64,000 nucleotides of DNA from Lentisphaera marina (GCF_028745505.1 NZ_JAQZZL010000001.1:1421818-1485817), one strand, 5' to 3'; positions 3,411 to 20,150 are shown, numbered from the stretch's first letter. Notes: generated by a model from the letters alone, not told the origin. Made by a program: numbers and translations.

Positions 3411-4670
3411 TTATTTAAATAAATCGCCGATTTTTGACCCGATTGCATAGTCCAGACGAAGCCAAACGTTCATGTCGTCATTGGCATAGCCATCACCACG
3501 GTCGTCATTGCCGACGAAGTAGGCAGCTTTAACTGATGCGGTTAAGTTGTCTGTTAATTTACGTGCGACCAAGGCATTGTATTCCATACCGTAATCATCA
3601 TTGCCAGCAACATCATCGAAGTAGTGGTAGGCAAGAACAACTTTATTACCCATGAAAGAACCTTTAAGGTCAATATAGTAATCTTGGAGACCATCAGCTA
3701 AGTTACCACCATTAGTTCCAAGGAATCGGTCAGACCATCCGTTGAATTTGTGAGCGGTAGAAAAGAGTGTGTCAAAAGCAAAATTTTCATCTCTTTCATC
3801 GATGAACATGTAACCGAGGCCTGGAGTCCAATCACCCATTTTGTAACCACCGTAGAGGTGTGTGAACATGGTTTCGTTATCATCGGAATCAGCATAGTCA
3901 GTTTGATAAGCAAAAGTTGCATCGTAGATAAAGTCATCAAATTTACCATCTACACGAACACCATAAGTAGCAGAATCGTTTGTAGTTGCACCCTTGTGAG
4001 CAGTTCCACCTTTGGCTTTTAAGTCTTCGTCACCGTCTACAAAGTAAGAAAAACCAGTTAGAGTGTGAGTTTCAGCTAATTTGTATTTAGCATTAAACAT
4101 GAGGATATGATCGTATTCTACGCTGTTACCAAAAATGGTATTGACTTTATCGGCATAAGCTGCAAAGAGCTCGAGTTTATCAATAGATTTGTTGGTGATG
4201 CTAACTGCATCAAAAGTTTGCTCGGTTTGTCTCCAACCAATATTACCAATGAAACGAACATCGTTTTGAAGAATTACTTGACGACCAACACGAACTTTAG
4301 TGTCTGGTATGAGAGTGAAATCAGCGTAAACTTGTTGCCAACGAGTTACATCGGGATCAGCTACAACCTCATATTCACCAGCGCCATGGCCCTCAGTATC
4401 ATTATAATCGGATACGACTCGTTGATTCGAATGATATTGTGCATAAAAACTTAAACCGCCAATTTCAGCAGTTCGAAAGCCAACATAGTTAGATAGAGTT
4501 AAGGCATTGGCATCATCATTAGCACTTCCCTGTACAGAAGCATGCTCATAGCCGAGTCTTGCTTTTAGGTCTAGTTCACCTTTCGTAAATATTTCGCCAA
4601 AGTCATTGGCTTTTTCTGCTGCTGTAGCTGCAAGTGCAGACATTAAGAAGCATGTTGCGAATTTTTTCAT
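3411..4670 (-). CDS. Putative outer-membrane beta-barrel porin
   Basis: Signal peptide starting at MKKFATCFLMSALAATA (internal ATG at 4670 with AAGGAA SD 8 nt upstream); alternating hydrophobic/polar pattern; aromatic-rich C-terminal strands. Confidence 0.45.
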   Translation of the reverse strand: MKKFATCFLMSALAATAAEKANDFGEIFTKGELDLKARLGYEHASVQGSANDDANALTLSNYVGFRTAEIGGLSFYAQYHSNQRVVSDYNDTEGHGAGEYEVVADPDVTRWQQVYADFTLIPDTKVRVGRQVILQNDVRFIGNIGWRQTEQTFDAVSITNKSIDKLELFAAYADKVNTIFGNSVEYDHILMFNAKYKLAETHTLTGFSYFVDGDEDLKAKGGTAHKGATTNDSATYGVRVDGKFDDFIYDATFAYQTDYADSDDNETMFTHLYGGYKMGDWTPGLGYMFIDERDENFAFDTLFSTAHKFNGWSDRFLGTNGGNLADGLQDYYIDLKGSFMGNKVVLAYHYFDDVAGNDDYGMEYNALVARKLTDNLTASVKAAYFVGNDDRGDGYANDDMNVWLRLDYAIGSKIGDLFK

Positions 4671-4931
4671 TTTTTCATTCCTTGTTTGACTTAGGGTTAT
4701 CATTCAACATGACTGCGAATAATAGGGATTATTGTATAAAAGCTTAGAGCTTAATGCAAAGGTTTTTATCAAAATTTCATTTGATTAAATTATTTATCTT
4801 AGCTTTAAAAATTTAATCTGATTTATTATAATTAAGTTTAAGGGAAGGTCAATCCCTTTTTTATACAAAATACCAAAAAAGTAATATATAACACAAAAGT
4901 TACAGTTATCGTATGTTTTTTTACTTGCCTT

Positions 4932-4983: not shown

Positions 4984-6390
4984 TTAAGCGGGAAGAGCAG
5001 CTTTTAGAGCAGCGGCTTCTTCTTGAGCTTTTTTGGTAGCGACAGCAGCAACTTCTTCATCTTTCGCAGAGAAGCGAACAAAAGCAGTAGCAATACCTGA
5101 GAGTATAATTAACCCACCAAGGATTAAAAAGCTACTTGATATACCAGCTGCTTCAGCAGCTTTTGTAGTGACTTCAGAAACCTGTGTAGGATCAATAGCT
5201 GAATGAGTATTTTTACATTTTTCCCTGATGAGCCAAGCGGCTAAAACAGCACCTGCATTACCACCAGCACCAACGATGCCAGATACAGAACCGACGCATT
5301 TTTTATTGATGAAGGGAACCACTGTAAAGGTTGCTCCTTCGGCCATTTGAACGCTGAGAGAGAAAAGGATTAGAACAACGACGGCGAGTGGGAAGTAAGT
5401 AATTTGTGAGAAAGAAGCTAAAATAATACCTTCGATAACCATGATTAACATGAGGAACTGAACTCGACCTTTAAGACCTTTTTTAATACCGAATTTATCT
5501 CCCAAGAACCCACCAGTAGTACGGGCAAATATGTTCATGAGTGCGAAGCATGCTACGAGTGTTCCTGCTTGACCACGACTTAAAGCAAACTGTGCTTGTA
5601 AGTAATCATCCATTTTGCCATAAACAGTGAGTTCGATACCGAAGCAACCTGCATAAACGAGGAAGAGGATCCAGCTACGGTAGTCTTTTGCAGCCTCAGT
5701 GAAACTACCTGATTTTTTAGCGTCAAGCATTTTACCTGCGGCACGTAGATCTTTGAAGTTACCTTCAGGAGTATCTTGGGTGAATTTGTAGTAGACGAGA
5801 CCCATGATGAAGCAACTCACACCAGCAAAAGCCATAGACCACCTCCATGCTTCTGCTTCAGCAACTCCACACGCAACCACACCTAGTGCAATAATTGGCA
5901 TTATAATTCGATTAGCACCACCACCGAGGTTACCCCAGCCAGCAGAAGTAGCGTTTGCTGTGCCTACACAGTTAGGAGCAAACATGAGAGAAGTGTGAAC
6001 TTGTGTAATAACAAAAGAGGCACCAATAAAACCAATGAGAATACGACAAAAAAGGAACTGTTCAAAATTTTGAACAAAAGCTATTCCGATAACTGGAAGT
6101 GAACCGAGTATAAGCATCCAAGTGTAGCATATTCTTGGACCATATTTGTCGCATAGTTTACCTAAAAGAAGGCGAGCAAAGATAGTGCCGGAAACGGCAG
6201 CAATTACTGAAAGGTTTGCTTGATCACCAGTCATTCCTAAAGATTTTTTTACCGCAGGCATAAATGGAACTATACCGAACCATGAGAAAAAGCACATAAA
6301 GAATGCGATTGCGGTTATCCAGAATGTGCGAATTTGAGGACTCTTAAGATCCGTCAACTTTAATTTTGTGGCTTTGCCAGCTATTTCCAT
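4984..6390 (-). CDS. narK: Nitrate/nitrite transporter, MFS NarK/NasA family
   Basis: 12-TM MFS with the NarK signature GWGNLGGG; start taken at internal ATG 6390 (MEIAGK...) with AAAGGAAG SD. Confidence 0.85.
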   Translation of the reverse strand: MEIAGKATKLKLTDLKSPQIRTFWITAIAFFMCFFSWFGIVPFMPAVKKSLGMTGDQANLSVIAAVSGTIFARLLLGKLCDKYGPRICYTWMLILGSLPVIGIAFVQNFEQFLFCRILIGFIGASFVITQVHTSLMFAPNCVGTANATSAGWGNLGGGANRIIMPIIALGVVACGVAEAEAWRWSMAFAGVSCFIMGLVYYKFTQDTPEGNFKDLRAAGKMLDAKKSGSFTEAAKDYRSWILFLVYAGCFGIELTVYGKMDDYLQAQFALSRGQAGTLVACFALMNIFARTTGGFLGDKFGIKKGLKGRVQFLMLIMVIEGIILASFSQITYFPLAVVVLILFSLSVQMAEGATFTVVPFINKKCVGSVSGIVGAGGNAGAVLAAWLIREKCKNTHSAIDPTQVSEVTTKAAEAAGISSSFLILGGLIILSGIATAFVRFSAKDEEVAAVATKKAQEEAAALKAALPA

Positions 6391-6595
6391 CGTAAACTTC
6401 CTTTTTACATCATCGTAGTATATATACATAAAACGACGATTTTTCGTCTGCGTCAGTAGATTACTTAAATGCTGTGGAATATCAAACAGGAAAAATAACA
6501 AATTTACAAAAAATCTACAAAAAAGTAAAAATATATACCAAAATTACAATTACGTAAAAATATTCAGGGTGATTGTGTAGGTGCTGATAATAATT

Positions 6596-9500
6596 TTAAA
6601 CTTTATTACTTATCCAAGCACATTGGTAAGGGGCCAGTTCAATAACTGCACTTAAATCATCATAAGATTGGTCACTGAGCAAGTCATGCCAAGTTTCTGT
6701 AGCTATTAGGTTAAGTTCGACTAAGGGGATTTTTTGAACTTGGTCACTAATATTATGAATCGCAAAAATATTTTGATGGCGATCTAGGCTCTCTCTCCAA
6801 AAAGCAAAGAGGGTGCTACCTAAGTGTAAAGTATATTGAGTGGCATTTGGATGAAAAGCTGCTTGTTTGCGGCGAATTTTAATTAGTTGCTTGAGTCTAT
6901 TAAAAACCGTCATGTGGTGACTTGAGGGGTCTTGTAGTTTTTCATTTAGTTCATTAATATCCCATTGGCTACGATTGATCGAACGCGCGCGACCCGTTTT
7001 CTCAGCAAATTCGTGATCATTTTGTGTGCCAAGTAAGCTGTGGATATATATAGCAGGGATACCCTCGAGAGCTAACATAATAGTGTGGGCGCATATAAAT
7101 CGATCTAGATGCCACTGATCCGACTCAGAAGAATTGGCCTTAACGGTAGATTTAAGTGCATCAAAAAGTGAAATGTTGACTTCATAAGGTTTGTTTTGAC
7201 CATCGGGAGTCTGTCTCATAGAGATATGACCGCCAAAATTACTTAAGGTCGAAAGCATATTACTCAACTCTGTATCATTTAATAAACCTTCAGCAGGGCG
7301 CACACCTATGCCGTCATGGGAGGCTATAAAGTTAAGATAAGTACGACCTCGTTTGGCAGGAGGCATGGACATCATCCAAGTTTTGAGGTGTGAGCAATCC
7401 CCAGTCAGTAAACTATTAATTAGTAAGGGGGGTAAAGAAAAGTTATAGATCATATGAGCTTCATTATCATTGCCAAAGTAACTTAAATTCTCGCGATTTG
7501 GGACATTAGTTTCAGTGATGATTAAAGCGGATGGCTCGATGTTTTCGAGAACCAAACGGATGAGTTTTATGATTTCATGTGTTTGATGAAGGTGCACGCA
7601 TTCAGTGCCGCTTTCTTTCCACAAAAAGGCAATGGCATCGAGTCTGAAGAGCCTTACGCCATGTTTAAGGTAATCAGCCAAAATACGAATCACTTCAAAT
7701 AGGACTTCAGGATTAGCATAATTGAGGTCGACTTGGTCAGCACTAAAGGTACACCAAACAGATTTTTCCCCTTTTTCAGTTTTGAATTCTGTTAGCAAGG
7801 GGGTCGCTCGAGGTCTTACGACTTTACTGAGATCAATCGAATCTTCAGGGATAATAAAATAGGATTTTCCAGGGGATTTATCCTCGAGGAAATTCTTAAA
7901 CCATTTTGATTGACTTGAACAGTGGTTAATAACAAGGTCGGCCATGAGTTTGAACTCACTGGCAATGGCTTCGACCTCTTGCCAAGTACCGAGGTCAGGA
8001 TTAATGGCATCATAATCAATAACTGAAAAACCGTCATCAGAACTGAAGGGTGAAAAGGGTAAGATGTGAACCGAGTTAACTGTTTTGTTTAGTTCTCTAT
8101 GCAGGAAACGGTGAAGGGTTCGAAGAGGAGGTTCACTTTGGTCAGATTTTTTTATGCTGTCCCCATAGGTGATAAGGACCACATCATCTTCTGACCACTT
8201 ATCCTGTTTAGTGTTTGTCAAAGGGCTAGCAGAAAGATTTAATTGCTCCATGAGTTTATCTGTTAGAGTATTAGTACAAATATCTTTATCTAATGACCCA
8301 TAGATTTCTCTTAAATGTAGAGAAATACGCTCTTTTAAGCGTTGTGTAGAAGGAGAAAGTACCGGCGTTTGTAGTGCGGAAGTGGAAAAATCACGATGAT
8401 CTTTTTCAACGGCATCCACAAGTCGTTCAAAAATATCTGGTACGGCAGCGCTAACGCGTTTCCAGCTAGGCATAAAGGGACTTTCCATAGCTTTTTCAAG
8501 AAAGTCTTGTCCTGCGTGAAGAATGTTTTCGGCAAATAGTTCGACCGCTTGACCTTCTTTATGGCGATCATAGGATAGACCATTAATGAGGGCGTCATTG
8601 TTATAACTATCGATGAGGTCTAGTGCCATACGGTAGTAGGTTGCTTTGATAGTTCGTATTGTCCCGGTAGAAAATACGGTGCCTTGTGTCGCCATCTTGC
8701 GAAAGAGTGATTTCGCGATGTCCGCACTCATTTTAGAAAGACCTTTGGAGCGATCACTTTCAGATAAGATCTGATGTTTATGGTCATAATTGTCAGCAAT
8801 ATCAACTTGGCAGATTTGGTTGCTAGAATAATTGCGTTGCAATTCTGAGAGTACGCCCATTTCAAGTCCCCAATCCGCAGGGATTCGTATATCTTCCAAA
8901 ACATCACTTTTCATAGAGAATTCCCCTGCTAAAGCATAGCGAAAACTATCGAGATAATCCAGGTACTCATTGGGTCCACAAACCTGTTTCATAGCGCGTA
9001 TAAGAGGAGTGACCAGAAGCCTGCAGGCGCGGCCATTTAATTTCTGACTCGCAATGCGCGAGTAAAACCCCTTACAAAATTTATAGCTAAAGTTGGGATG
9101 CACAACAGGGTAAATGAGTCGAGCAAGTAAATCGCGCTTATAGGTGAGGATATCACAGTCGTGAAGGGCGACAGCTTTAGCTTTTTCAGTAGCTAAAATA
9201 TAACCGAACATGTACCAAACATTTCTTCCTTTTCCCGGGTGTGGAGGGGCTAGATCATAGGACTGGAGCAAGGCATCGATGGCGCGGAGTCGAGGTCCAT
9301 CATGCCACATGACTTGAGGTTTTTGCGGGAGGCAATTAAAAAATTGTAGGGCATTGCGGTATTGGTCTTCATCGGCACGGTCCAGTCCGACAACAATTTG
9401 CTTTAAGTAATCCACATCTCTAAGTTCTTCGACAATATTAGCTAATGCGGGACCTTCTAATTCAGAGTAAAGGGAAGGCAATAATAATGCCATTGGTTTT

Positions 9501-9601
9501 TTTTTACTAAAAGTCCTTAGCTCATCTTCTAATTCGTTGATCGGTCGTTGGTTAAGGCTGTGAAGAGTTGTTACAATACCGTGCTGATGAAAATCACCCA
9601 T
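6596..9601 (-). CDS. Bifunctional protein: N-terminal GT-A glycosyl-3-phosphoglycerate synthase-like domain (GpgS/MpgS-like) fused to C-terminal GH13_18 sucrose-phosphorylase-family glycoside phosphorylase
   Basis: N-terminus has a GT-A DxD region (ALHDCDIL); C-terminal half carries sucrose-phosphorylase hallmarks ILPFSPFSSDDGFSVIDY, LVINHCS, FRLDAIAFLWKESGTECVHL, IASHDGIGVRP. Confidence 0.6.
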   Translation of the reverse strand: MGDFHQHGIVTTLHSLNQRPINELEDELRTFSKKKPMALLLPSLYSELEGPALANIVEELRDVDYLKQIVVGLDRADEDQYRNALQFFNCLPQKPQVMWHDGPRLRAIDALLQSYDLAPPHPGKGRNVWYMFGYILATEKAKAVALHDCDILTYKRDLLARLIYPVVHPNFSYKFCKGFYSRIASQKLNGRACRLLVTPLIRAMKQVCGPNEYLDYLDSFRYALAGEFSMKSDVLEDIRIPADWGLEMGVLSELQRNYSSNQICQVDIADNYDHKHQILSESDRSKGLSKMSADIAKSLFRKMATQGTVFSTGTIRTIKATYYRMALDLIDSYNNDALINGLSYDRHKEGQAVELFAENILHAGQDFLEKAMESPFMPSWKRVSAAVPDIFERLVDAVEKDHRDFSTSALQTPVLSPSTQRLKERISLHLREIYGSLDKDICTNTLTDKLMEQLNLSASPLTNTKQDKWSEDDVVLITYGDSIKKSDQSEPPLRTLHRFLHRELNKTVNSVHILPFSPFSSDDGFSVIDYDAINPDLGTWQEVEAIASEFKLMADLVINHCSSQSKWFKNFLEDKSPGKSYFIIPEDSIDLSKVVRPRATPLLTEFKTEKGEKSVWCTFSADQVDLNYANPEVLFEVIRILADYLKHGVRLFRLDAIAFLWKESGTECVHLHQTHEIIKLIRLVLENIEPSALIITETNVPNRENLSYFGNDNEAHMIYNFSLPPLLINSLLTGDCSHLKTWMMSMPPAKRGRTYLNFIASHDGIGVRPAEGLLNDTELSNMLSTLSNFGGHISMRQTPDGQNKPYEVNISLFDALKSTVKANSSESDQWHLDRFICAHTIMLALEGIPAIYIHSLLGTQNDHEFAEKTGRARSINRSQWDINELNEKLQDPSSHHMTVFNRLKQLIKIRRKQAAFHPNATQYTLHLGSTLFAFWRESLDRHQNIFAIHNISDQVQKIPLVELNLIATETWHDLLSDQSYDDLSAVIELAPYQCAWISNKV

Positions 9602-9636
9602 GGTGTTCTCCTTGTTTTAGACATCATTTGTCTTTG

Positions 9637-11421
9637 TTAAAATTGTATTCCATAGAGGGATAGAAAAAGTTCTTTTATGGCTTGCTGCCAAGCGGTGGGC
9701 CCGCTTTCGGTACATTTGATTGTATGAGGGGCAGATATTTCAAATGCAGCATGTTTTTTGTTAGGGATCAAAGCGCCTATGTCAGCTTTATTGAGCATTG
9801 TTTGATCATTAGGGCTATCTCCAAGGGCAACGACTAGCCAATGATCTGAAGTCTGTGTTTTAATATAATGGGATCGTAAGCTTTCAAGGGCGTCGGCTTT
9901 GTCGGCTTGTCCCATGAGGTGGATAAATTGACCGCCACGAATGACTCTGACGCCATGATCTTCGAGGCTCGCTTTGAACTCGGTGAAATTCTCAAAACTA
10001 TCATACCATAAGATAGGTTCAGTGGAATTGCGTTGTTTTGCTAAGTTCGCAGACTGTGGCTTAAGTCCAGTGGCAGAGCTTATTTCTTCCGCAGTCATAT
10101 CACTAAAACCAGTAAATTTATAATTGTGTTTCTGACGTAAGTTATGCGCTAGCTCTAAGATTGATTTTAAATCAATTGAACTTACAGAAATCTTGTAGTT
10201 TTCATGGTCGGGGTAAGCAATGATTCCACCGTTTTCAGCGACGATGGGTGTTGGTGGTGTTTTGAATTGTTGCTGAATTTGTTCAGCTAAAGGGATCATT
10301 TCCACAAGAGTTTTACTTGAATTGAAAATGACAGGGAAAGAAACTTTAGACAATTGTTCTAGGCTTTGATTGGCAGCTGCCCAACTATAGTTTTCATCTA
10401 GTAAGCTAGCGTCGAGGTCAGTAACCACTATGAGTTTAGACTTACTAATGTAGGGCGGCCAGTTTGATTCCTTATAAGATTGAGTATCGATCCCATGATT
10501 TTCGTTGAGATAAAAGGTGAGATCGCTTTTTTGAGGCATATCTTCAAGCATCCATCGAGTCAGCCTTTCATAGTGCATAATAAAGCGTTTCAACTGAGAG
10601 CTATTCATAATTTGAGAACTAGCACTCGGGTCAGTCTGTTGCTTTAATAATCGTTCTTCTTGTTGACTTCGCCATAGGTGAATACGTTCGAAATTGGGTG
10701 CTTTCAGCATAGCTAAATAGTCGAGTTTGCTGAAAAGGGCTTGGTAATCTTCCGTGAGTTGCTCGTTGATGTAGTGGCGCCAATGACCTTCTGGGTCCTC
10801 TAGCTGCTCTAGTTCATTAACATGTTTTTCTAGATGTTCGATGGCTTGTGGCTCGGCGCCAATACACCAACCTTCAAGAATAATGACATCAATAAATTGA
10901 TCTGGTAAATCGTCTCCATCGGGGAAGCGGTCATCTATGGCTTTATTGAATCTTGGGATTTGTATGTTTGAAATCTTTTCATCATCGGGTAGTGCCGTCA
11001 AACTGTCTAAGATTTGCTTAGCGAGTTGAAGGTCATGCGTGCCTGGGACCCCTCGCGTTTTTAAAAGTGGATGAATCGAATCGGCTAATTCGTCTCTTTC
11101 TTTTTTCGTCAAATAGAAATCATCAATGGAAAGAGTGATGACATTAAGGCCGTATTCCTGCAATAATTCTTTGAGTAAATCTGCGAGGGTTGATTTGCCA
11201 GTTCCTTGCGCACCATTGATGCCAAGAACAAAACTTTTCTTTTGCTGAGTTTTCTTTTCTTGTGACCATTGAAGTAAATTTAGGGACAATGGGAGGTAAT
11301 ACTGCCAAGCGGTACTTAAAAAAGAAGAAGGCAGTTCGTTCTTTTTGATGAATTTTTTTATAAAAGCTAAATGTGAGGAGGCTTTTTTACGCTCTGAGTC
11401 AAGCTTTGATTGGTCTTTCAT
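9637..11421 (-). CDS. Bifunctional protein: N-terminal P-loop D-glycerate 3-kinase-like domain (PRK/uridine-kinase fold) fused to C-terminal HAD-IIB glycosyl-3-phosphoglycerate phosphatase-like domain
   Basis: Walker A GINGAQGTGKSTL plus IDDFYLTKKER (glycerate-3-kinase family motif); C-terminus has HAD motif I VVTDLDASLLD and MpgP/GpgP-like cap region. Confidence 0.55.
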   Translation of the reverse strand: MKDQSKLDSERKKASSHLAFIKKFIKKNELPSSFLSTAWQYYLPLSLNLLQWSQEKKTQQKKSFVLGINGAQGTGKSTLADLLKELLQEYGLNVITLSIDDFYLTKKERDELADSIHPLLKTRGVPGTHDLQLAKQILDSLTALPDDEKISNIQIPRFNKAIDDRFPDGDDLPDQFIDVIILEGWCIGAEPQAIEHLEKHVNELEQLEDPEGHWRHYINEQLTEDYQALFSKLDYLAMLKAPNFERIHLWRSQQEERLLKQQTDPSASSQIMNSSQLKRFIMHYERLTRWMLEDMPQKSDLTFYLNENHGIDTQSYKESNWPPYISKSKLIVVTDLDASLLDENYSWAAANQSLEQLSKVSFPVIFNSSKTLVEMIPLAEQIQQQFKTPPTPIVAENGGIIAYPDHENYKISVSSIDLKSILELAHNLRQKHNYKFTGFSDMTAEEISSATGLKPQSANLAKQRNSTEPILWYDSFENFTEFKASLEDHGVRVIRGGQFIHLMGQADKADALESLRSHYIKTQTSDHWLVVALGDSPNDQTMLNKADIGALIPNKKHAAFEISAPHTIKCTESGPTAWQQAIKELFLSLYGIQF

Positions 11422-11495
11422 ACTTTCCCTTCATTTAGTTTTAGATACGATATAGAAGTTCTTGTGTCATCAATTAATACCTATATATCTATTTA

Positions 11496-11520
11496 AAAAG
11501 CGGGCCGAAGCCCGCTTTAT
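11496..11520 (-). terminator. Rho-independent terminator ending the cytochrome operon
   Basis: Perfect stem AAAGCGGGC-cgaa-GCCCGCTTT followed on the minus strand by TTTTT, right after the DUF3365 gene stop. Confidence 0.75.
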
Positions 11521-11528
11521 GTCATATC

Positions 11529-12128
11529 TTAGTTCATTGGAATACGTATAACAACTCCGCCCATGACTTCGCCCATAGCAAAGTCAGTTCTAGGACTATC
11601 TTTGTGATCGTTGTGGCAGTCGATGCATGCATCAGAAACTGCGACGTCCGGATAAACTGCAGTATAGAACTTTTTGCCACCGAGATCTTCAGTACCATAA
11701 AAGTTTTTACCTGGATTAGCACCAATGTATTTCAAGCCTTCTTTCTCCATGGGAGTCTTTGGAGCATTTTGCTTGTTAATAGGCCACTCTGACTGTAAAG
11801 AGTATGTGAAACCAGGGTTTTGTTCCATGGCTAGGTCACGTGCATAGCGGAACATTTGAGCTGGTAGCATGACACCATTTTCTTTGTCTTCCCATTTTTC
11901 GTGGGGTTTAATGATCTTCTTTTCTTTACCTAAGTTTTTAATAACGTGTTTCGTGTAGGCTGTACGAGTACCTTTCATAACGGCAAATAATGCATCGGCC
12001 ATTTTTTCTGGTTTTACACTTTCTTCTGCAGCTGCAGGAGCAGCGGCGGGTTCGGCAGGTTTGTTGCAAGAAGTTAAAAAGCTAGCTCCAAAAGCTAGAG
12101 TTAAACATGTTGTTGTGATGAATTTCAT
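11529..12128 (-). CDS. DUF3365 family haem-binding lipoprotein
   Basis: Lipobox LTSC, single CIDCH haem motif, overall match to the DUF3365 family that accompanies multihaem cytochrome operons. Confidence 0.6.
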   Translation of the reverse strand: MKFITTTCLTLAFGASFLTSCNKPAEPAAAPAAAEESVKPEKMADALFAVMKGTRTAYTKHVIKNLGKEKKIIKPHEKWEDKENGVMLPAQMFRYARDLAMEQNPGFTYSLQSEWPINKQNAPKTPMEKEGLKYIGANPGKNFYGTEDLGGKKFYTAVYPDVAVSDACIDCHNDHKDSPRTDFAMGEVMGGVVIRIPMN

Positions 12129-12222
12129 GATGGTTATTCCTTGAATTGACTATGGTGGTTATGCCTGCAAAATTGTTTTTCTTGTTGAGGTCGATAAATG
12201 TAATGTTTCTATATATGCCTCC

Positions 12223-13494
12223 TTATTCTCGTTCTTTCGCCCATTTGAGCGAGGGGATCTCTTTACTTGGAGATCGATTAAAATTGTGCTGAATGAGCTC
12301 CTCATCAGCAAGAGCGTTAATGGAAAATTCTAAACCGTGGCACTTCATGCACGCACTACGAATCATTTTTTCGTTGGGACGCAGATTATTATTTTGATTA
12401 TGATCGACGATGACCTTGCCATGTTTCTTTATTCGTGGCATGTGACAAGTTGCACAAGAGACACCTTTATTAAATTCGCCCATTTCGCTATCTATTCGCC
12501 AGTATGTGTAGTGCGGCGATTTTTTGTAGTTGAGTGAATGGCTATCATTATGGCATTTTAGGCAGGCATCCATGGCGGCAGTTCTTAAGCTAAAACGGTG
12601 GTCATTGTGGCAACTAATGCAGTTAACTTCGCGGTGTGCAGCAGAGGCTTTCATTTCTAAACGTGCATCAGCAACTTTCATTGCAGGTAGGCCAACACTT
12701 AAACGCATGCCATGGCGACCTTCTTGGAAAGATTTGCTCTCATCTTTATGGCATTTCTGGCAGGTTTGCCAAGGGACTTTATTGTTCCAAGTTTTGTCCT
12801 CTTCATTTTCATGGCATGCACGACAATTCACCCCAGCCGCCGCGTGAGCCGTGGAACTCCAGTCATGAAGGATTTGAGGATTAGGTAATTCGGGTGAATC
12901 GTGTTCTATGAGGGCTTTTTTCTTATCAATTTTTTTGTGGAGCGCCAACTCGCTAGCTGCGTGTAAGTGGTCATCTTCTCCGTAGTGATCGACTAAGAAG
13001 TCTTCGTATAAGGCACGGTTGTCGTGATAGTTGTGACAGCCTGCAGTTGCACAAGTCTGAAAATCTAAACCCTTATGGGATTCACGTTCTTCGCCAATTT
13101 CGCTGTGGCACTCGAGGCAATAATTTTCAGGTAGAGTGACGCCCATTTTCCCTGTAGAGTGAGGTACATGCTCGCTGTGGCAAGTGACGCACTTTCGTCC
13201 ATCTAATTTTTGAACCATTTCAAAATTACGAGGATCATTAAATTTATTAGCAGGGTGAGAATCCTGAGAGTCCTTTAAATCTTGTTGGTGACAATCGATG
13301 CAGGCATTTTCTTTAATACCCATATTGGGAGTATGGCAAGCATCGCATTTTAATTCGATTTGATAGTGACCATGGCTCGTTTCATTAGGTAGAAAGTTGG
13401 GCTTCAGTTCTTCATTGAGCAACTCATTTCCAAAGAAAATAGAAGCGAGGGTGCTGAGGATGATCCAAGCAAGTATGGGGATGAGTGTTTTCAT
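12223..13494 (-). CDS. Periplasmic multihaem cytochrome c (10-11 haem-binding motifs), membrane-anchored
   Basis: Motifs CDACH, CIDCH, CVTCH, CLECH, CATAGCH (CX4CH?), CRACH, CQKCH, CISCH, CLKCH, CATCH, CMKCH; N-terminal signal/anchor MKTLIPILAWIILSTLASIFF; ATG at 13494 overlaps the upstream stop (ATGA). Confidence 0.85.
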   Translation of the reverse strand: MKTLIPILAWIILSTLASIFFGNELLNEELKPNFLPNETSHGHYQIELKCDACHTPNMGIKENACIDCHQQDLKDSQDSHPANKFNDPRNFEMVQKLDGRKCVTCHSEHVPHSTGKMGVTLPENYCLECHSEIGEERESHKGLDFQTCATAGCHNYHDNRALYEDFLVDHYGEDDHLHAASELALHKKIDKKKALIEHDSPELPNPQILHDWSSTAHAAAGVNCRACHENEEDKTWNNKVPWQTCQKCHKDESKSFQEGRHGMRLSVGLPAMKVADARLEMKASAAHREVNCISCHNDHRFSLRTAAMDACLKCHNDSHSLNYKKSPHYTYWRIDSEMGEFNKGVSCATCHMPRIKKHGKVIVDHNQNNNLRPNEKMIRSACMKCHGLEFSINALADEELIQHNFNRSPSKEIPSLKWAKERE

Positions 13495-15434
13495 AATGAG
13501 AAATAGTAGGCTTGTAAGATGTGAAAAGTAATGAGCACGGGAATGGGCCAAAAGACGAGAAAATGAATAAAGGTGATTTGTCGACGCCAACGACGACAGA
13601 AAGCGGCAACTCTATTCGTTCCATAAAATTCAAAACTAGTGGTGAAACCCGTAATAACTCCAAATAAATTCATGGTAGTAAAAGTCCAGAATAAGTAGGC
13701 GTTGATATTTTTTCCTGGGTTGAACCCAGTATGAAGCATAAGGATGATAAGACTAATCAAAGCGAATACAGCATGAGAAACACGCCATAAGTTGTAGTTG
13801 CCAAAGCGGAAAAATTTAAAGCGCTTTCTTAGACTAATAGCAGCGGCAAATAAAGTGAATGCGAGGATTGAGAAACCAGTAATTTGTCTCCATAGGCCCG
13901 AGCGTAAAGTTTGACTGATTTTGTAAGAAGTAGAGTTGTAGGAATCTATATTCCAGTACACAGGAGAGAAATAGATTACAGCAAGAGCGACTACGCAAAG
14001 ACTTGAGAAGATTAGTAAGCCGCGGTTGGGTTTGTTTCGTAATTCAACTTCTTTGCCTGCGAGTTGGGCAATAAGGCCTTCGCAAGATCCACAAGCTGTA
14101 CAGGCACCAGTTTCTTTTTTGAGCGTATCAATATTGTTGTTACAGGTTTTGAAGCACTGAACAATTTCACCTTTAGAAACTTTGAGGCAGTTACAGATGA
14201 TTGTTTCGTCAGGCCATTTTTCAACTGAATCACTTATATTCCAAAAGCTACCCGTTTCTAAAAAGCTATTGATTTCTTCATCTGTTACTAGCATGCGGTT
14301 TTCGATAGCACTTTGAATACGACCAAGATCGGACCATTCACCGATGCCTATAGCGCCAACTAAATGCTTTTTGTCAAAGTTGAGCATGCGATAGCTAGTT
14401 TTATCTTTGTAGACTAAAGATTTAAATGGTTGAAGTGCAGCACCTAAGCTGACGACATTTTCTCCTAAAAGTTTGAGGCGGGTGGAGGTGTCGGCTCCTT
14501 CGAAAGTTTTTTCTTGACCAGAGAAGTTAGCCGCAAGAACTTCGGCCATTTTATAACCTGGAGCAACGAGGCCATAGACCGTGTTTTGGTGGCGAACGCA
14601 CTCACCCATAGCATAAACATTAGCTTCAGAAGTTTTTAGCTGGTCATCACAAATGATGCCTCCGCCAAGAGATACATCAATTTTAGCTTTTTCTGCTACT
14701 TGATGATTGGGACGAATACCTGCCGAAACAACGATGAGGTCACAGTTTATGCTTTCTCCATTTTTAAAGTGAATTTTTAGGCCAGTTTCTCCTCCGGAAA
14801 TTTCTTTACTGGCAGTCCCCGTGTGGACAGTGAAGCCTTTTTGTTCGATGCTTTCTTTTAAGCGTTCAGAGGCTTCGGGGGTTAATTGGCGCGGCATTAA
14901 AAAATCGGCCATTTCTACGATGTGAGTTTCTAAGCCCTGAGCTTGGAGGAAGTCAGCAGCTTCGATGCCTAATAAGCCACCACCAACGACGACGGCGGTC
15001 TTTTTATTTTCGGAAAAAGTGCGGATGGCATCCACGTCTTCGATAGTTCTATAAGTAAAAACACCTTTTTTTTCAACTCCAGGTATGGGAGGGAGAAAGG
15101 CGGATGAACCTGTTGCAAAAATTAGTTCATCATAGGGATACATTTGCCCAGAATCAGTTTTTACTATTTTGCTTTTGGGTTCAATTTGGGCAATGCTCTC
15201 ACCTAAGCGTAATTCAATGTCATTATCCTTAAACCATTTTTCATCACTGAGTTGGATACTTTTGAAATCCTTGTTACGTGCATAAGTTGTCAGTTGCACG
15301 CGATCGTAGGCTAGATGCTTTTCTTTACTGAAAATGATCAATTCATATTTGTTCATGAGACCAAGTTTTACAAATTGGTCACAGAAGTGCTTGGCAACCA
15401 TGCCAAAGCCGATGATGATCATTTTTTCTTTCAT
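13491..15434 (-). CDS. Fusion flavoprotein: NirB-like FAD/NAD(P)H pyridine-nucleotide-disulfide oxidoreductase plus BFD-like [2Fe-2S] domain plus C-terminal ferric-reductase-type (FRD) di-haem transmembrane domain
   Basis: FAD site IIGFGMVA, NAD site VVVGGGLLGIEAA, BFD cysteines CNC...CTACGSC; C-terminus has about 6 TM helices with His pairs spaced 14 residues apart (SHAVFALISLIILMLH; IHFLVFWPIPVLITFH) typical of bis-haem b ferric reductase domains. Confidence 0.7.
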   Translation of the reverse strand: MKEKMIIIGFGMVAKHFCDQFVKLGLMNKYELIIFSKEKHLAYDRVQLTTYARNKDFKSIQLSDEKWFKDNDIELRLGESIAQIEPKSKIVKTDSGQMYPYDELIFATGSSAFLPPIPGVEKKGVFTYRTIEDVDAIRTFSENKKTAVVVGGGLLGIEAADFLQAQGLETHIVEMADFLMPRQLTPEASERLKESIEQKGFTVHTGTASKEISGGETGLKIHFKNGESINCDLIVVSAGIRPNHQVAEKAKIDVSLGGGIICDDQLKTSEANVYAMGECVRHQNTVYGLVAPGYKMAEVLAANFSGQEKTFEGADTSTRLKLLGENVVSLGAALQPFKSLVYKDKTSYRMLNFDKKHLVGAIGIGEWSDLGRIQSAIENRMLVTDEEINSFLETGSFWNISDSVEKWPDETIICNCLKVSKGEIVQCFKTCNNNIDTLKKETGACTACGSCEGLIAQLAGKEVELRNKPNRGLLIFSSLCVVALAVIYFSPVYWNIDSYNSTSYKISQTLRSGLWRQITGFSILAFTLFAAAISLRKRFKFFRFGNYNLWRVSHAVFALISLIILMLHTGFNPGKNINAYLFWTFTTMNLFGVITGFTTSFEFYGTNRVAAFCRRWRRQITFIHFLVFWPIPVLITFHILQAYYFSL

Positions 15435-15533: not shown

Positions 15534-16334
15534 TTATGCGTGCTTTTTCTTTAATTCTTCTTGTTCTTCTAAGAATGAAATCAAGTGCTCGCGGTAAGGG
15601 TAATAATCTGGATGATTTAGCAGTGTTTGACGGTCTCTAGGGCGAGGGAGGTCATTAATTAAAATATCTCCTAAAGTTGCCTTCGGACCATTAGTCATCA
15701 TAATGACACGGTCTGATAAATAGAGGGCCTCATCAACATCATGTGTCACCATAAGTGTAGTGAGTTTGTGTTCAGCATGAAGTTTAACGATAAGATCTTG
15801 TAGTTCGTACTTTGTGAGTGCATCGAGCATGCCTAAAGGCTCATCGAGTAACATGATTTTTGGCTTGAGGGCAAAAGCTCGGGCAATACCAACGCGTTGA
15901 CGCATGCCACTGGAAAGCTCTTTTGGTTTTTTCTCGATAGCTCCACCTAAACCCACGGCGTGAAGGTAATGCATAACAATTTCTTCTTTTTCTTTAGCTG
16001 ATGCATGTGGGTAAACTTTTTTTACACCGAGCATGACATTGTCATAAGCACTGAGCCAAGGAAGGAGGCTTGGAGCTTGGAAAACGACGCCACGATCAGG
16101 GCCAGGGCCATTGATTTCTTTATCGGCAACTGCAACAGAACCTTTGGTAATGTCGTTGAGCCCTGCGGCCATAGAGAGGATAGTTGACTTGCCACAGCCT
16201 GAGTGTCCGATGAGGCAAACAAATTCTGATTCTGGTATCTGTAAACTAAAGTCTTCTAAAACGACAAAAGGGCCTTTTTTAGTTTCGTAAACTTTACTTA
16301 AATTTGATAGGTCTAAATAACGGTTTTTATCCAT
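15534..16334 (-). CDS. Nitrate/bicarbonate-type ABC transporter ATP-binding protein (NrtD/CmpD-like)
   Basis: Walker A GHSGCGKST, signature LSSGMRQRVGIARA, Walker B IMLLDEP. Confidence 0.8.
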   Translation of the reverse strand: MDKNRYLDLSNLSKVYETKKGPFVVLEDFSLQIPESEFVCLIGHSGCGKSTILSMAAGLNDITKGSVAVADKEINGPGPDRGVVFQAPSLLPWLSAYDNVMLGVKKVYPHASAKEKEEIVMHYLHAVGLGGAIEKKPKELSSGMRQRVGIARAFALKPKIMLLDEPLGMLDALTKYELQDLIVKLHAEHKLTTLMVTHDVDEALYLSDRVIMMTNGPKATLGDILINDLPRPRDRQTLLNHPDYYPYREHLISFLEEQEELKKKHA

Positions 16335-16343
16335 GGTTTAACC

Positions 16344-17195
16344 TTAAATTGCTGCTGGAGCGATGTCAGGTAGCGGGTAACTGTTGCTATCTGTCGTCTC
16401 GTTTAATTTTTCTTTGCGCTTTTCTTCGTTTAAGAAGCTAATAACTTCTGCACGTAAGCGACGGAATTCTTCGTTTTTATTGAGAGTTTTACGATCTCTG
16501 GGGCGAGGAATATTGATTTCAAATGATGGGCCTAAAGTGGCATTTGGACCGATGCTTATAGGTATGATTCTGTCGGCCATGTAGAGGCCTTCATCCACAT
16601 CATTAGTGATGAGAACAATAGTCTTGCCAGTGGATTTCCAAATATCGAGGATTTGATCTTGAAGAACCGAACGAGTTAGGGCATCTAGAGCACTTAAAGG
16701 CTCGTCCATGAGCAAGATATCCGGATCCATAGAGAGGGCGCGTGCCACAGATACGCGTTGGCGCATCCCTCCTGATAACTCTTTAGGTTTTTTGTGAATC
16801 GCTGGGCTTAAGCTTACCATATCGACATACTTTTCAATGATGGCTTGTCGTTCAGTCTTTGATTTGTCTTTGTATATTTGGTTGACTGCTAAGCCCACAT
16901 TGCCCTCAACTGATAACCAAGGAAGTAGGGAGTAGTTTTGAAAAATAACACCACGGTCTGGTGCAGGACCAGTGACAGGTTCACCTTTACTTCTCACTTC
17001 ACCTTCACTTGGCTCGAGTAAGCCACCCATGAGGTTGATGAGTGTGGATTTGCCCATTCCAGAAAAACCTACGATGGCAACAAATTCCCCCTTTTTAATT
17101 TGAAGGTTAATATCTTTAAGGATTTCGGCGCGATTTTCCTTTTCGCCAAAATGTCTTGAGACATTATTGAGTTCTAAAATATAATCCATTTTCAA
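16344..17195 (-). CDS. Nitrate/bicarbonate-type ABC transporter ATP-binding protein (NrtC/CmpC-like, single domain)
   Basis: Walker A GFSGMGKST, signature LSGGMRQRVSVARA, Walker B LLMDEP. Confidence 0.8.
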   Translation of the reverse strand: MKMDYILELNNVSRHFGEKENRAEILKDINLQIKKGEFVAIVGFSGMGKSTLINLMGGLLEPSEGEVRSKGEPVTGPAPDRGVIFQNYSLLPWLSVEGNVGLAVNQIYKDKSKTERQAIIEKYVDMVSLSPAIHKKPKELSGGMRQRVSVARALSMDPDILLMDEPLSALDALTRSVLQDQILDIWKSTGKTIVLITNDVDEGLYMADRIIPISIGPNATLGPSFEINIPRPRDRKTLNKNEEFRRLRAEVISFLNEEKRKEKLNETTDSNSYPLPDIAPAAI

Positions 17196-17202
17196 ATCCA
17201 GG

Positions 17203-18720
17203 TTAGGCTGCTACGTCGTCGTTAAAACTCACGAGTTTTTGGAAGACTGACATGATGCGGTCGAGCACGGCTCCAATGAGGCCAATGATAAAGATACATA
17301 CGATAATATTAGCGAGAGACTCAACTTTATTGTTTTGGTATTCTTGGTCAATAAACCAACCGAGTCCGCGTGAAGTTGCCATCATTTCTGCAACAATGAG
17401 TACCATCCAGCCCACACCGAGTGTAATGCGAAGTCCTGTGAAGATGTAAGGGATTGCAGATGGGATGACAATTTTGAAAATGCGATCAAACCAGTTGAGC
17501 TTAAGAACTTTTGCTACGTTCATGTGATCTGGATCCACAGAGCTTACACCAAGTGCAGTGTTAGAGAGTGTCGCCCACATAGAGCAGAGCGCTACCGTGA
17601 TACCAGCGTGAAGGAAGGTGTTCTTTAAAATTTCTCCAGTTAGAGCATTGTCACCCACAAAAATACCGTCGATAATTTGGATTGTGATTAATACCCAAGC
17701 AAGAGGGGAAACAGGACGGAAAGTTTGGATCAGTGGGTTTAAAGCAGTCATGATAGAAGGACTCAGCCCACATAGGATACCCATGGGGATAGCAATACCT
17801 GCGGCTAGACAGAAGCCAAAGATTACAGTCGTGATACTGAGCTTAATATAGTCAACAATACTACCATTAGAGTTGTATTCCTTTCCTTTGAAAATTTGCT
17901 TTTCAAAAGCGTCGAGTTTCTTCTTGTTAGAGATGATTTTCTTCTCGAGTTCATCTTTATTGAGTGCGGCTTGGTAGGCGATGTCCTGTTGGTAGTAGGT
18001 ATCAATTTTTTCGATTTTCTTAATCAGGCTTTTTGCCGTGTTTTCACTGCTTTTGTAAATGCGAACCAAGTTGCCTTCGAATACAGCTACGCGACGGTTA
18101 TTTATATTAGCTAGTTTAGATAGACTTTCATCAGAGAGTTTAGGTTTTCCATCAGGGCCTAAAACAGCTTTGTTATTTTCGTCAAAGACAAATTTTTTGA
18201 GAGAGTTTAGCTGAGTTGTCATAGCTGTGACTTGCGCTTTTTTATCCGCTTCAGCTTTGTCTACTATTGCCTGATTAACCTTGATCTCGTTTTCGAGTTG
18301 ACTTAAGTGTTTAAGTATTACGGCCTTAATAGAGTTGATTTTAGAAGTTAAACTCTTTTTTGTTTCTAAAGAAGTCGTTTTTTGTCTTTGCTCAATGAGT
18401 TCAGCGACACTGATTCGCAATTCTTCGTTAGTTTTAAATTCTTCTTTATTAAATTTTTCGCTCTTGTGGGTGGCCCACATAGCTTTGGCCTGACTTAATA
18501 CGTATGAGGGTCCAGGAAGTTGGCCAACAGATGTTTTGATTTTTGTTGAGCAGTAGCTCCAAATCATAAAAAAGCTTACCATTGCGGCAAGGGGTAGGGC
18601 TATTTGACGAGAAAGATCGCCGATTTGTTCTTTTGGGTCGTCCCCCGTGCATAGTCGCACAATAGGGATGAACCATGTAAGTCCAGTTAATTCGAAAAAG
18701 TTAATGAGCTTTTGTTTCAT
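17203..18720 (-). CDS. NrtB/CmpB-like ABC permease with a ~250-aa coiled-coil insertion between TM1 and TM2
   Basis: N-terminal TM1 and C-terminal permease core with the EAA-like region (AIPYIFTGLRITLGVGWMVLIVAEMMATSRGLGW) are split by a long K/E-rich predicted coiled coil. Confidence 0.65.
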   Translation of the reverse strand: MKQKLINFFELTGLTWFIPIVRLCTGDDPKEQIGDLSRQIALPLAAMVSFFMIWSYCSTKIKTSVGQLPGPSYVLSQAKAMWATHKSEKFNKEEFKTNEELRISVAELIEQRQKTTSLETKKSLTSKINSIKAVILKHLSQLENEIKVNQAIVDKAEADKKAQVTAMTTQLNSLKKFVFDENNKAVLGPDGKPKLSDESLSKLANINNRRVAVFEGNLVRIYKSSENTAKSLIKKIEKIDTYYQQDIAYQAALNKDELEKKIISNKKKLDAFEKQIFKGKEYNSNGSIVDYIKLSITTVIFGFCLAAGIAIPMGILCGLSPSIMTALNPLIQTFRPVSPLAWVLITIQIIDGIFVGDNALTGEILKNTFLHAGITVALCSMWATLSNTALGVSSVDPDHMNVAKVLKLNWFDRIFKIVIPSAIPYIFTGLRITLGVGWMVLIVAEMMATSRGLGWFIDQEYQNNKVESLANIIVCIFIIGLIGAVLDRIMSVFQKLVSFNDDVAA

Positions 18721-18785
18721 AGTGATTTATTCCTGCAAGTTTCCGCTTAGTGTGTCCCTCCCGCAGGAGGGACTGGTTTTATTAT

Positions 18786-20150
18786 TTAAGGTGCTTTGAT
18801 TTCGAAACTATCGATGTAGTCGTTGGGTTTAGTGCCATCATAGGCTTTGCCGTCAATGAAAATGTCTTCTGCAGTTACAGGTTTGAAACCAGTTTCGTCA
18901 TCTCCAGGAATTTCGCTTTCTTCAATATTGCCTTCTTCAACGAGGAGCTTGGCCGCTTCCATGTAGAGGTCTGGTTTGTAGATTTTTTCAGCTGTCTTCT
19001 TGTACCATTCGTCAGATTGATCTTCTTTGAGCTGCCCCCATCTGCGCATTTGAGTGAGGAACCAAACACAATCAGAGTAGAAGGGGTAAGTGGCGTTATA
19101 TCGGAAGAATACGTTAAAGTCAGGCATTTCTCTGCGATCACCGCGTTCGTAAACAAAAGAACCAGTCATTGAGTTACGAAGAATTTTAGCTTCTGCACCT
19201 ACATAGTGTGATCTAGAAAGGATTTGAACAGCTTCTTCACGATTTTCCATAGAAGCATCTAACCATTTACCAGCACGAATGAGCGCTTTCAGAACTGCAG
19301 TGTGAGTTTTTGGGTGTTTTTTAGCCCATTCTTCAGTGACACCAAATACTTTTTCAGGATTGTTTTTCCAGATTTCATAGTTAGTTACGACAGGTACACC
19401 GAGTTGCTTACCATCTTTTTCAGCAAATACAGCTTTCTGGTTCCATGGTTCACCTACGCAGTAACCGAGGATGGCGCGACTGTTGAGGTAAGAAGGCATG
19501 AGTGGTGGCGCATTAGGAGAAATAATAACTTCTGCATCGGTATGGCCTTTAGAATCAGATTCAGTATAGAAGCCTGGGTGAATTCCTGCAGCCGCTAGCC
19601 AATAACGCAGTTCATAGTTGTGAGTAGATACGGGGAATACCATGCCCATGTTGAAAGGTCCATCCCATTCTTCAAGAACTGGCTTGAGGGCATCGGCTTT
19701 AATAGGGTGAATTGGCTTGCCATCGGCATCCTTGGGAACGTGCTCTTTCATTTGTTCCCACACATCAGTTGCCATTGTGATACCATTACCATTCAGGTCC
19801 ATGCTGAAAGCTGTAATAACATTAGCTTTTTGGCTTACACCTACTGTAGCACCAATAGGTTGACCAGCGAGCATGTGAGCGCCATCCAAAGCGCCTTTAA
19901 TAACGTTGTCCAAAAGAATAACCCAGTTTTTTTGAGCCGTTAATTTTACATTGAGGCCTTCTGCTTCAAAGAAGCCTTTCTCTTTAGCAATAACAAGTGA
20001 AGCACAGTCAGTGAGCTTAATGAAGCCAAAGTGAAGGTTAGTTTTTTCAACATCCAAAGGGATGGTGTTTTCGTCGACGCTCTCCGCCATTGTAGGGATG
20101 GTGCAAAATAGGAAAAAGCTTAAAAAGGCTTTTCTGATTTTATGTTTCAT
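18786..20150 (-). CDS. NrtA/CmpA-like periplasmic substrate-binding protein of a nitrate/bicarbonate ABC transporter
   Basis: 454 aa (size of NrtA/CmpA, not TauA/SsuA); signal peptide; first gene of the four-gene ABC operon. Confidence 0.7.

Follow-up and report, generated by a model that had tools for sequence, protein, structure and literature searches.

The 64,000-nt stretch of Lentisphaera marina DNA analysed here (the window, in which all positions below are counted) carries exactly two co-directional open reading frames at 6596-11421, both on the minus strand like every other window feature named in this text. Gene 1 (9637..11421, 594 aa) encodes a D-glycerate 3-kinase-like (GLYK) kinase joined to a HAD-IIB hydrolase resembling glucosyl-3-phosphoglycerate phosphatase (GpgP), and gene 2 (6596..9601, 1001 aa) encodes a predicted glucosyl-3-phosphoglycerate synthase (GpgS) joined to a predicted glucosylglycerate phosphorylase (GGaP); they are written GLYK::GpgP and GpgS::GGaP hereafter. 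Both proteins were 100% identical to L. marina RefSeq entries, which are named 'HAD-IIB family hydrolase' (gene 1) and 'alpha-amylase family glycosyl hydrolase' (gene 2). The first-pass annotation of this DNA had claimed two bifunctional fusions here; both reading frames were present, all four domain assignments held in sequence comparison, and the motifs it had named were located, namely GINGAQGTGKST and SIDDFYLT in gene 1 and ILPFSPFSSDDGF, RLDAIAFLWKE and IASHDGIG in gene 2. It is probable that this pair of genes provides for glucosylglycerate (GG) metabolism, with a synthetic and a recycling arm, by means of four enzymes combined in two bifunctional proteins.

The two genes are separated by a spacer of 35 nt (9602..9636) with an AAGGAG ribosome-binding site before gene 2. 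Direct reading of the DNA upstream of gene 1 revealed a GC-rich hairpin, AAAGCGGGC-TTCG-GCCCGCTTT, followed by a T-run (11495..11518) after the stop codon of a Tll0287-like gene; its stem was kept in L. profundi, and it is likely an intrinsic terminator dividing the gene pair from the nitrate and cytochrome genes further upstream. Because the hairpin and T-run lie just upstream of gene 1, the gene pair looks like its own two-gene operon. A pattern scan for promoters and terminators gave nothing above the shuffled expectation and overlooked this hairpin. Inspection of the 75 nt preceding gene 1 showed neither a sigma-54-type promoter nor another that could be recognised as nitrogen-regulated, and only the terminator and the ribosome-binding-site region were conserved with L. 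profundi. An Rfam scan of the whole window detected no riboswitch and no other RNA family.

Domain identities of the two fusion proteins

The kinase domain of gene 1 (10537..11307, residues ~39-295, as delimited by PDB matches and invariant residues) contains its P-loop at G67-T78 (11188..11223). The top three PDB matches were all GLYK or GLYK-like structures (6ckg, 1.9e-22; 7xpc, 5.9e-18; the yeast GLYK-like 1odf, 3.6e-17), whereas pantothenate kinases were matched at about 1e-4 (9e-5 or weaker). The alignments with GLYK structures spanned residues 39-292 and had the motifs SIDDFYLT, RGVPGTHD (RG.PGTHD), EGW and WRsQQE (WR.QQE) in common, the kinase motifs being invariant across 18 gene 1 homologues. 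Several homologues carry the name D-glycerate 3-kinase from the Joint Genome Institute. With its P-loop, its family motifs and its closer match to GLYK than to pantothenate kinase (PanK), Udk or PRK, the domain belongs by sequence to the GLYK family (class III glycerate kinases), as had been proposed for it; the assignment rests on PDB matches and motifs. The predicted reaction converts ATP and D-glycerate to 3-phosphoglycerate (3-PGA) and not to 2-phosphoglycerate, the regiochemistry being read from family membership only. A uridine or pantothenate kinase was considered as well and was rejected, since GLYK structures matched far better and the family motifs were aligned. The P-loop kinase fold and the family motifs are common to gene 1 and to these plant, cyanobacterial and fungal GLYKs, but those GLYKs serve photorespiration or serine metabolism as free-standing enzymes, whereas the gene 1 kinase is fused to a HAD phosphatase in a putative osmolyte operon.

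The second half of gene 1 is a HAD-IIB phosphatase domain (9661..10446, residues 326-587), which passed the TIGR01486 (MPGP family) model with 184 bits against a cutoff of 164.75; gpgP-type enzymes belong to this family. Its best PDB match was YedP (1xvi, 2.1e-27). All four HAD motifs were intact and invariant in 18 fused homologues, i.e. motif I (D335-x-D337, 10411..10419), motif II (S369-K-T371), motif III (K508) and motif IV (G534-D535...N538-D539). By sequence, the domain is a member of the mannosyl/glucosyl-3-phosphoglycerate phosphatase family, which agrees with the glycosyl-3-phosphoglycerate phosphatase-like domain suggested at first.

Gene 2 begins with a GT81-type GT-A domain (8378..9601, residues 1-408). 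Its DxD motif, D148-C-D150 (9152..9160), aligned with that of mycobacterial GpgS, and so did PGKG, KGFYSR (KGFYxR), GRACRL (GR..RL), AGEF, WGLEMG and DHKHQ (the His motif), which include acceptor-site motifs. The Methanococcoides-type model NF040724 (GpgS_Meth, ~400 aa) was matched over its full length with 363.5 bits, from residue 3 to 404 of gene 2 and over positions 2-401 of the 402 in the model. Furthermore, a profile of 29 family members found only GT81 GpgS/MpgS structures in the PDB (1.2e-15 to 1.2e-11). A GpgS-type GT81 enzyme is supported by these comparisons, with the predicted activity NDP-glucose + 3-PGA -> glucosyl-3-phosphoglycerate (GPG), and the earlier call of a glycosyl-3-phosphoglycerate synthase-like domain stands. 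A different GT-A enzyme at the N-terminus was ruled out, given that only GT81 GpgS/MpgS structures were matched and the DxD and acceptor motifs were aligned. The full-length match, the DxD and the 3-PGA-site motifs are held in common with GpgS of the M. burtonii / P. marina / R. baltica type (NF040724; distant kin of the mycobacterial GT81 GpgS), but gene 2 differs from that type in scoring under the equivalog cutoff and in being fused to a phosphorylase.

The C-terminal part of gene 2 (6599..8359, residues 415-1001) is a GH13_18 domain, including a ~50-aa N-terminal extension that is also found in stand-alone GGaPs. Its best PDB matches were GH13_18 phosphorylases, and YcjM, a characterised GGaP of E. 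coli, was 41% identical over the full domain. The GH13 catalytic triad was invariant in the fusion homologues: the nucleophile D655 (RLDA, 7637..7639), the acid/base E697 in the TETN motif (T696-N699 within IITETNVP, 7505..7516) and, for the transition-state Asp, H762-D763 (7313..7318). The acid/base role falls to E697 and not to the Glu of 'WKE'. According to a review, strict GGaPs are told apart from sucrose phosphorylases and their relatives by (T/S)ETN at beta-strand 5 and by a loop-A Glu replacing Gln (PMC7178133). Loop A of gene 2 reads PYEVN (Y806-E807, 7181..7186), and neither TETN nor the loop-A Glu of PYE(V/I)N varied among 18 fusion homologues, YcjM and two stand-alone relatives. 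Structures of sucrose and glucosylglycerol phosphorylases, by comparison, have the loop-A Gln and no TETN (7qqi, YQVN; glucosylglycerol phosphorylase 7xdq, YQL).

With TETN, the loop-A Glu, the triad and the kinship to YcjM, the C-terminal part is by its sequence a GGaP (EC 2.4.1.352). Sucrose or glucosylglycerol phosphorylase was rejected as its identity, the signatures of those enzymes being absent. The first-pass annotation was right about the GH13_18 phosphorylase family but not about a sucrose-phosphorylase character; because TETN and the loop-A Glu are present, invariant and common to YcjM, the 'sucrose-phosphorylase hallmarks' it had listed are GGaP hallmarks. The sugar, which it had left open as glucose or mannose, is corrected to a predicted glucose, the phosphorylase being of the GGaP type. 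The GGaPs of E. coli (YcjM, 41% identity), M. silvanus and S. thermophila resemble gene 2 in TETN, in the loop-A Glu and in extending by ~50 aa at the N-terminus. However, those enzymes are stand-alone proteins of ~560 aa, and E. coli has no linked gpgS, whereas gene 2 carries a complete GpgS N-terminally.

Distribution and origin of the fusions

Homologues were counted as clusters at 90% identity, and gene order was compared at 80 loci from a scan of one genome per species. At least 117 clusters of full-length homologues of the gene 2 fusion were obtained, each ~990-1008 aa, together with at least 120 clusters of full-length gene 1 homologues, including Alkalimarinus, Methylophaga, Bermanella and Gilvimarinus. 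All catalytic residues of both halves were kept in 18 homologues of the gene 2 fusion (62-92% identity), and the catalytic motifs of all four domains were invariant across the homologues examined. Chance, a frameshift or an assembly artefact was rejected as the source of the fusions, since each of them has over 100 independent homologues of full length.

The complete GpgS::GGaP fusion was present at all 80 loci, with 57-68% identity to gene 2. The hosts were mostly marine Verrucomicrobiota (Opitutia/Puniceicoccaceae, Akkermansiaceae/Rubritalea, Luteolibacter) and Kiritimatiellota (Pontiella), and a few were metagenome-assembled genomes from other phyla. A gpgP-like HAD gene lay immediately upstream of the fusion in 77 of the 80 loci; with gpgS directly downstream so regularly, the context points to GPG over mannosyl-3-phosphoglycerate (MPG) as the phosphatase substrate. 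GLYK was found upstream of the HAD gene in 34 loci. The two were separate genes, overlapping or at most 15 nt apart, in 27 loci and were fused in only five (four Pontiellaceae and one Haloferula), where both fusions occur together. Among the interchangeable ways in which this conserved module is organised, the L. marina double fusion is the most compact.

In an exhaustive search with clustering at 50% identity, all fused GpgS sequences fell to one representative, and the other 311 of the 312 strong relatives were nearly all ~400 aa or shorter (stand-alone GpgS or fragments); the GpgS::GGaP fusion is therefore one clade. The closest unfused relatives were gammaproteobacterial, in Alkalimarinus and Methylophaga, with consecutive genes for GLYK::GpgP, GpgS (407-408 aa) and GGaP (580-584 aa). 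Over its whole length, their GpgS could be aligned with gene 2 residues 1-408 (64% identity), and their GGaP, starting from its own residue 1-5, with residues 415/422-1000 (53-57% identity). As read from these alignments, the two halves of gene 2 are joined directly head to tail with about six residues between them, which the loss of a stop codon between neighbours would be expected to leave. The fusions would have arisen by head-to-tail merging of adjacent genes in an ancestral glyK-gpgP-gpgS-ggaP operon. In Methylophaga sp. OBS4, a gene for a GalU-like UTP-glucose-1-phosphate uridylyltransferase was observed directly after ggaP (L083:12867-13721, plus strand); it would close the sugar arm (glucose-1-phosphate to UDP-glucose) inside the same cluster.

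An unfused GG gene cluster is reportedly found in Meiothermus silvanus. The pathway logic itself, in which GpgS and GpgP make GG, GGaP phosphorolyses it, glycerate is rephosphorylated and the genes are clustered, has been published (PMC7178133; bioRxiv 10.1101/2024.05.01.591941; PMC10873239). In Synechococcus PCC 7002, GpgS, GGaP and GpgP are encoded by A2021-A2023 (PMC10873239), and the GG operon of Prochlorococcus was described as combining synthesis with recycling of GG to glucose-1-phosphate and 3-phosphoglycerate (bioRxiv 10.1101/2024.05.01.591941). The unfused clusters of Synechococcus PCC 7002, Prochlorococcus, Marinobacter and M. silvanus and the L. marina operon have the same four activities, pathway logic and GGaP signatures, but the former encode separate polypeptides, whereas L. 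marina has two bifunctional proteins in an operon inside a nitrate-uptake cluster.

Fused compatible-solute enzymes also have precedents in the bifunctional MpgS/MpgP (Dehalococcoides-type, NF011072) and in GgpPS of Marinobacter and Stenotrophomonas, and in the latter case a GH13_18 phosphorylase (glucosylglycerol phosphorylase) adjoins the synthesis genes (PMC10873239). MpgS/MpgP and GgpPS, however, fuse the consecutive synthase and phosphatase steps, whereas in L. marina a synthase is joined to a degradative phosphorylase and a phosphatase to a recycling kinase. Full-text literature searches returned no report of a GpgS-GGaP or GLYK-GpgP fusion, although the primary GGaP literature or older reviews may contain a passing mention. 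Since synthesis, recycling and clustering had already been published, the cycle itself is not new; the novel part appears to be the fusion architecture and its recurrent link to nitrate-uptake genes. The arrangement had been called non-standard at first, which holds for a fusion architecture that appears undescribed but not for the closed-cycle logic and the gene clustering, and the fusions are widespread (at least 117 and at least 120 clusters).

A proposed cycle of glucosylglycerate synthesis and recycling

If the four domains act as predicted, GpgS (gene 2) would make GPG from NDP-glucose and 3-PGA, the HAD domain (gene 1) would hydrolyse GPG to GG and inorganic phosphate (Pi), GGaP (gene 2) would convert GG and Pi to alpha-glucose-1-phosphate (Glc1P) together with D-glycerate, and GLYK (gene 1) would return D-glycerate to 3-PGA at the expense of ATP. 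Because GGaP would give Glc1P and glycerate and GLYK would restore 3-PGA, both breakdown products of GG would be direct precursors for its resynthesis. The closed cycle postulated in the first-pass annotation (glycerate -> 3-PGA -> glucosyl-3-PG -> glucosylglycerate -> Glc1P + glycerate) proved stoichiometrically coherent with these predicted activities. Glc1P would be reactivated by an NDP-sugar pyrophosphorylase, and one full turn would cost about two nucleoside triphosphates by our own stoichiometry, so that the two arms would need reciprocal control in vivo. The suggested role is that of a nitrogen-free anionic compatible-solute pool in a marine bacterium, tuned to osmotic and nitrogen status; such an adjusted pool is the likely physiological role and is consistent with the position of the operon amid nitrate-uptake genes.

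The order of steps alternates between the polypeptides, with the kinase on protein 1, the synthase on protein 2, the phosphatase on protein 1 and the phosphorylase on protein 2. Neither fusion joins consecutive steps, each chain holding one synthetic and one recycling activity, and channelling within one chain is not expected. The simplest account is a merger of neighbouring genes, which would fix the stoichiometry. A bolder proposal would be that both proteins form one complex with four activities that runs GG metabolism as a regulated substrate cycle, with a synthetic and degradative pairing like that of PFK-2/FBPase-2; we regard it as conceivable but unlikely. If it were true, one signal, be it ionic strength, Pi or nitrogen status, could switch the module as a whole between accumulation and recycling of GG, with a tie to nitrate through the genomic placement, and only if both proteins prove to be such a regulated, complex-forming switch would the system gain greater significance. 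When an AlphaFold2 model of gene 2 was searched against the PDB with Foldseek, GH13 matches only were returned.

Several observations count against the four-enzyme cycle as set out above. The synthase half scored below the equivalog cutoff of NF040724 (363.5 against 700 bits) and of PRK13915 (58.5 against 262), for which reason it is related to GpgS but is no equivalog by the NCBI threshold. Likewise, the HAD domain fell under every MpgP equivalog cutoff, e.g. 199 against 353, and the phosphorylase half reached 199 bits with sucrose_gtfA against an equivalog cutoff of 334. Neither the NDP-sugar donor nor the choice between GPG and MPG is readable from the sequence. In 35 of the 80 loci only the HAD gene, and no GLYK, stood beside the module, so that local recycling of glycerate is not universal in it. 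The AlphaFold2 model of gene 2 (from an alignment of 18 sequences) had a mean pLDDT of 70, with residues 165-279 of the GpgS half below 50, and is too weak for judging inter-domain contacts, geometry or channelling.

The alternative that survives best, at a low probability, is that the phosphorylase half runs synthetically in vivo (Glc1P + D-glycerate -> GG + Pi), which would place two parallel GG routes in one fusion. The GGaP reaction is reversible and has been used for GG synthesis in vitro (PMC11009771), and for gpgS-linked 'SPase' genes an earlier hypothesis proposed a third route to GG by way of a phosphorylase (PMC3736172); the loci without a neighbouring GLYK would also suit this direction. 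On the other hand, the glycerate kinase of the module, present in 34 of the 80 loci and fused here, would drain glycerate, drawing the reaction in the phosphorolytic direction. The Pi/Glc1P ratios typical of cells favour that direction too. In Prochlorococcus, moreover, transcript data were interpreted as recycling (bioRxiv 10.1101/2024.05.01.591941).

It is quite improbable that the module mainly catabolises exogenous GG from marine picocyanobacteria, with GGaP and GLYK supplying glycolysis with Glc1P and 3-PGA and GpgS and GpgP being secondary. GG is a major solute of marine picocyanobacteria, an exchange of GG between phototrophs and heterotrophs has been proposed (bioRxiv 10.1101/2024.05.01.591941), and the fusion is carried mostly by marine heterotrophs from the Planctomycetes-Verrucomicrobia-Chlamydiae (PVC) group. 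But no conserved sugar or solute transporter was found beside the module in the 80 loci, where the neighbours beyond GLYK and HAD were unrelated housekeeping genes; the active sites of synthase and phosphatase were invariant and strongly constrained; and the phosphatase gene was the most conserved neighbour (77 loci).

A product other than free GG, such as mannosylglycerate, mannosylglucosylglycerate (MGG) or a GG primer for polysaccharide, was judged very improbable. The best NCBIfam names of the HAD domain were mannosyl-3-phosphoglycerate phosphatases, GT81 includes an MpgS (3f1y), R. baltica makes MGG from GPG (PMC3736172), and a GT4-like, possibly MggA-like gene lies upstream in eight of the 80 loci. 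However, GH13_18 enzymes act on alpha-glucosides and both strict-GGaP signatures are found here, the GT domain matched GpgS far better than anything else, and no GT4 gene adjoins the operon in L. marina or L. profundi. The GT4-like glycosyltransferase gene itself (Glyco_trans_1_4, ~398 aa) was observed directly upstream of gpgP, e.g. at L020:6070-7266 (plus strand), and it could be MggA-like, extending GPG to MGG in those eight loci.

Finally, it is scarcely credible that the kinase acts on nucleosides or pantothenate and has nothing to do with glycerate, the closed cycle then being over-read. Only weak generic NCBIfam matches were obtained (nucleoside/nucleotide kinase family, 38 bits; panK_bact, 33 bits), and a GLYK model is missing from Pfam; but in the PDB the top three matches were GLYK or GLYK-like and lay 13 to 18 orders of magnitude ahead of PanK with the family motifs aligned, and the domain is fused or adjacent to gpgP in 34 of the 80 GG loci and also in gammaproteobacterial GG operons.

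GGaP has been called the sole possible sink known for GG in many producers, and its in vivo role was without experimental confirmation (PMC7178133). The fusion of GpgS to GGaP is strong 'Rosetta-stone' evidence that both act on one GG pool in the same cell, and the same applies to GLYK::GpgP; it also raises the question of how a futile cycle is avoided. Because the proteins carry only generic annotations, both in Lentisphaera and across at least 80 further species genomes, GG metabolism is probably under-counted in marine heterotrophs. A single polypeptide of 1001 aa with predicted GpgS and GGaP activities may also interest those who produce GG enzymatically.

Nitrate-uptake genes and other neighbours

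The gene immediately downstream of the GG operon, and co-directional with it, encodes a NarK-family nitrate/nitrite transporter of the major facilitator superfamily (4984..6501), which scored 287.8 bits with TIGR00886, just under the cutoff of 311.7. Upstream and again co-directional, the components of a nitrate ABC transporter are encoded at 15534..20150, i.e. an NrtA-like binding protein, an NrtB permease and two NrtC/D ATPases. Synteny was identical in L. profundi, with NarK downstream and NrtABCD upstream. Among loci from other phyla, NrtABCD stood directly upstream of gpgP-gpgS::ggaP and in the same direction (L010 and L026) or adjoined the module (L001).

In cyanobacteria, mycobacteria and others, GG accumulates under nitrogen limitation (PMC5381378). 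The linkage of the operon to nitrate uptake is suggestive, and the repeated placement near nitrate-uptake genes fits the connection between GG and nitrogen scarcity and extends it to the PVC superphylum. Two points weaken it: linkage to Nrt genes was seen in only about four of the 80 other loci, some possibly of shared ancestry, and co-regulation with nitrate uptake is not proven, because the conserved hairpin terminator intervenes upstream.

Three genes (11529-15434) lie on the stretch that separates the GG operon from the nitrate ABC transporter; they encode a NirB-like flavoprotein, a multihaem cytochrome c and the Tll0287-like protein, and the same set was present in L. profundi. The flavoprotein (647 aa) matched only the N-terminal ~468 of the 794 positions of the NirB model, covering the FAD/NAD and BFD 2Fe-2S parts with no sirohaem domain, and its C-terminal ~180 residues appeared hydrophobic by eye. 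The cytochrome (455 aa) is cytochrome-c552-like at its C-terminus, and the Tll0287-like protein (199 aa) has a CxxCH motif. The trio may be a non-canonical nitrite-reducing module for assimilation.

Downstream of NarK, an outer-membrane porin of the Alginate_exp family is encoded at 3411-4703, and a homologous porin stands beside the Nrt genes in L001; it is plausibly an anion or nitrate porin. Beyond the porin, genes for an iron(III)-type ABC binding protein and permease (616-3243) are co-directional with the nitrate and GG genes. At eight of the fusion loci, a DUF6172 gene (~99 aa) was observed directly downstream of GpgS::GGaP on the same strand, e.g. at L013:11820-12119 (plus strand).

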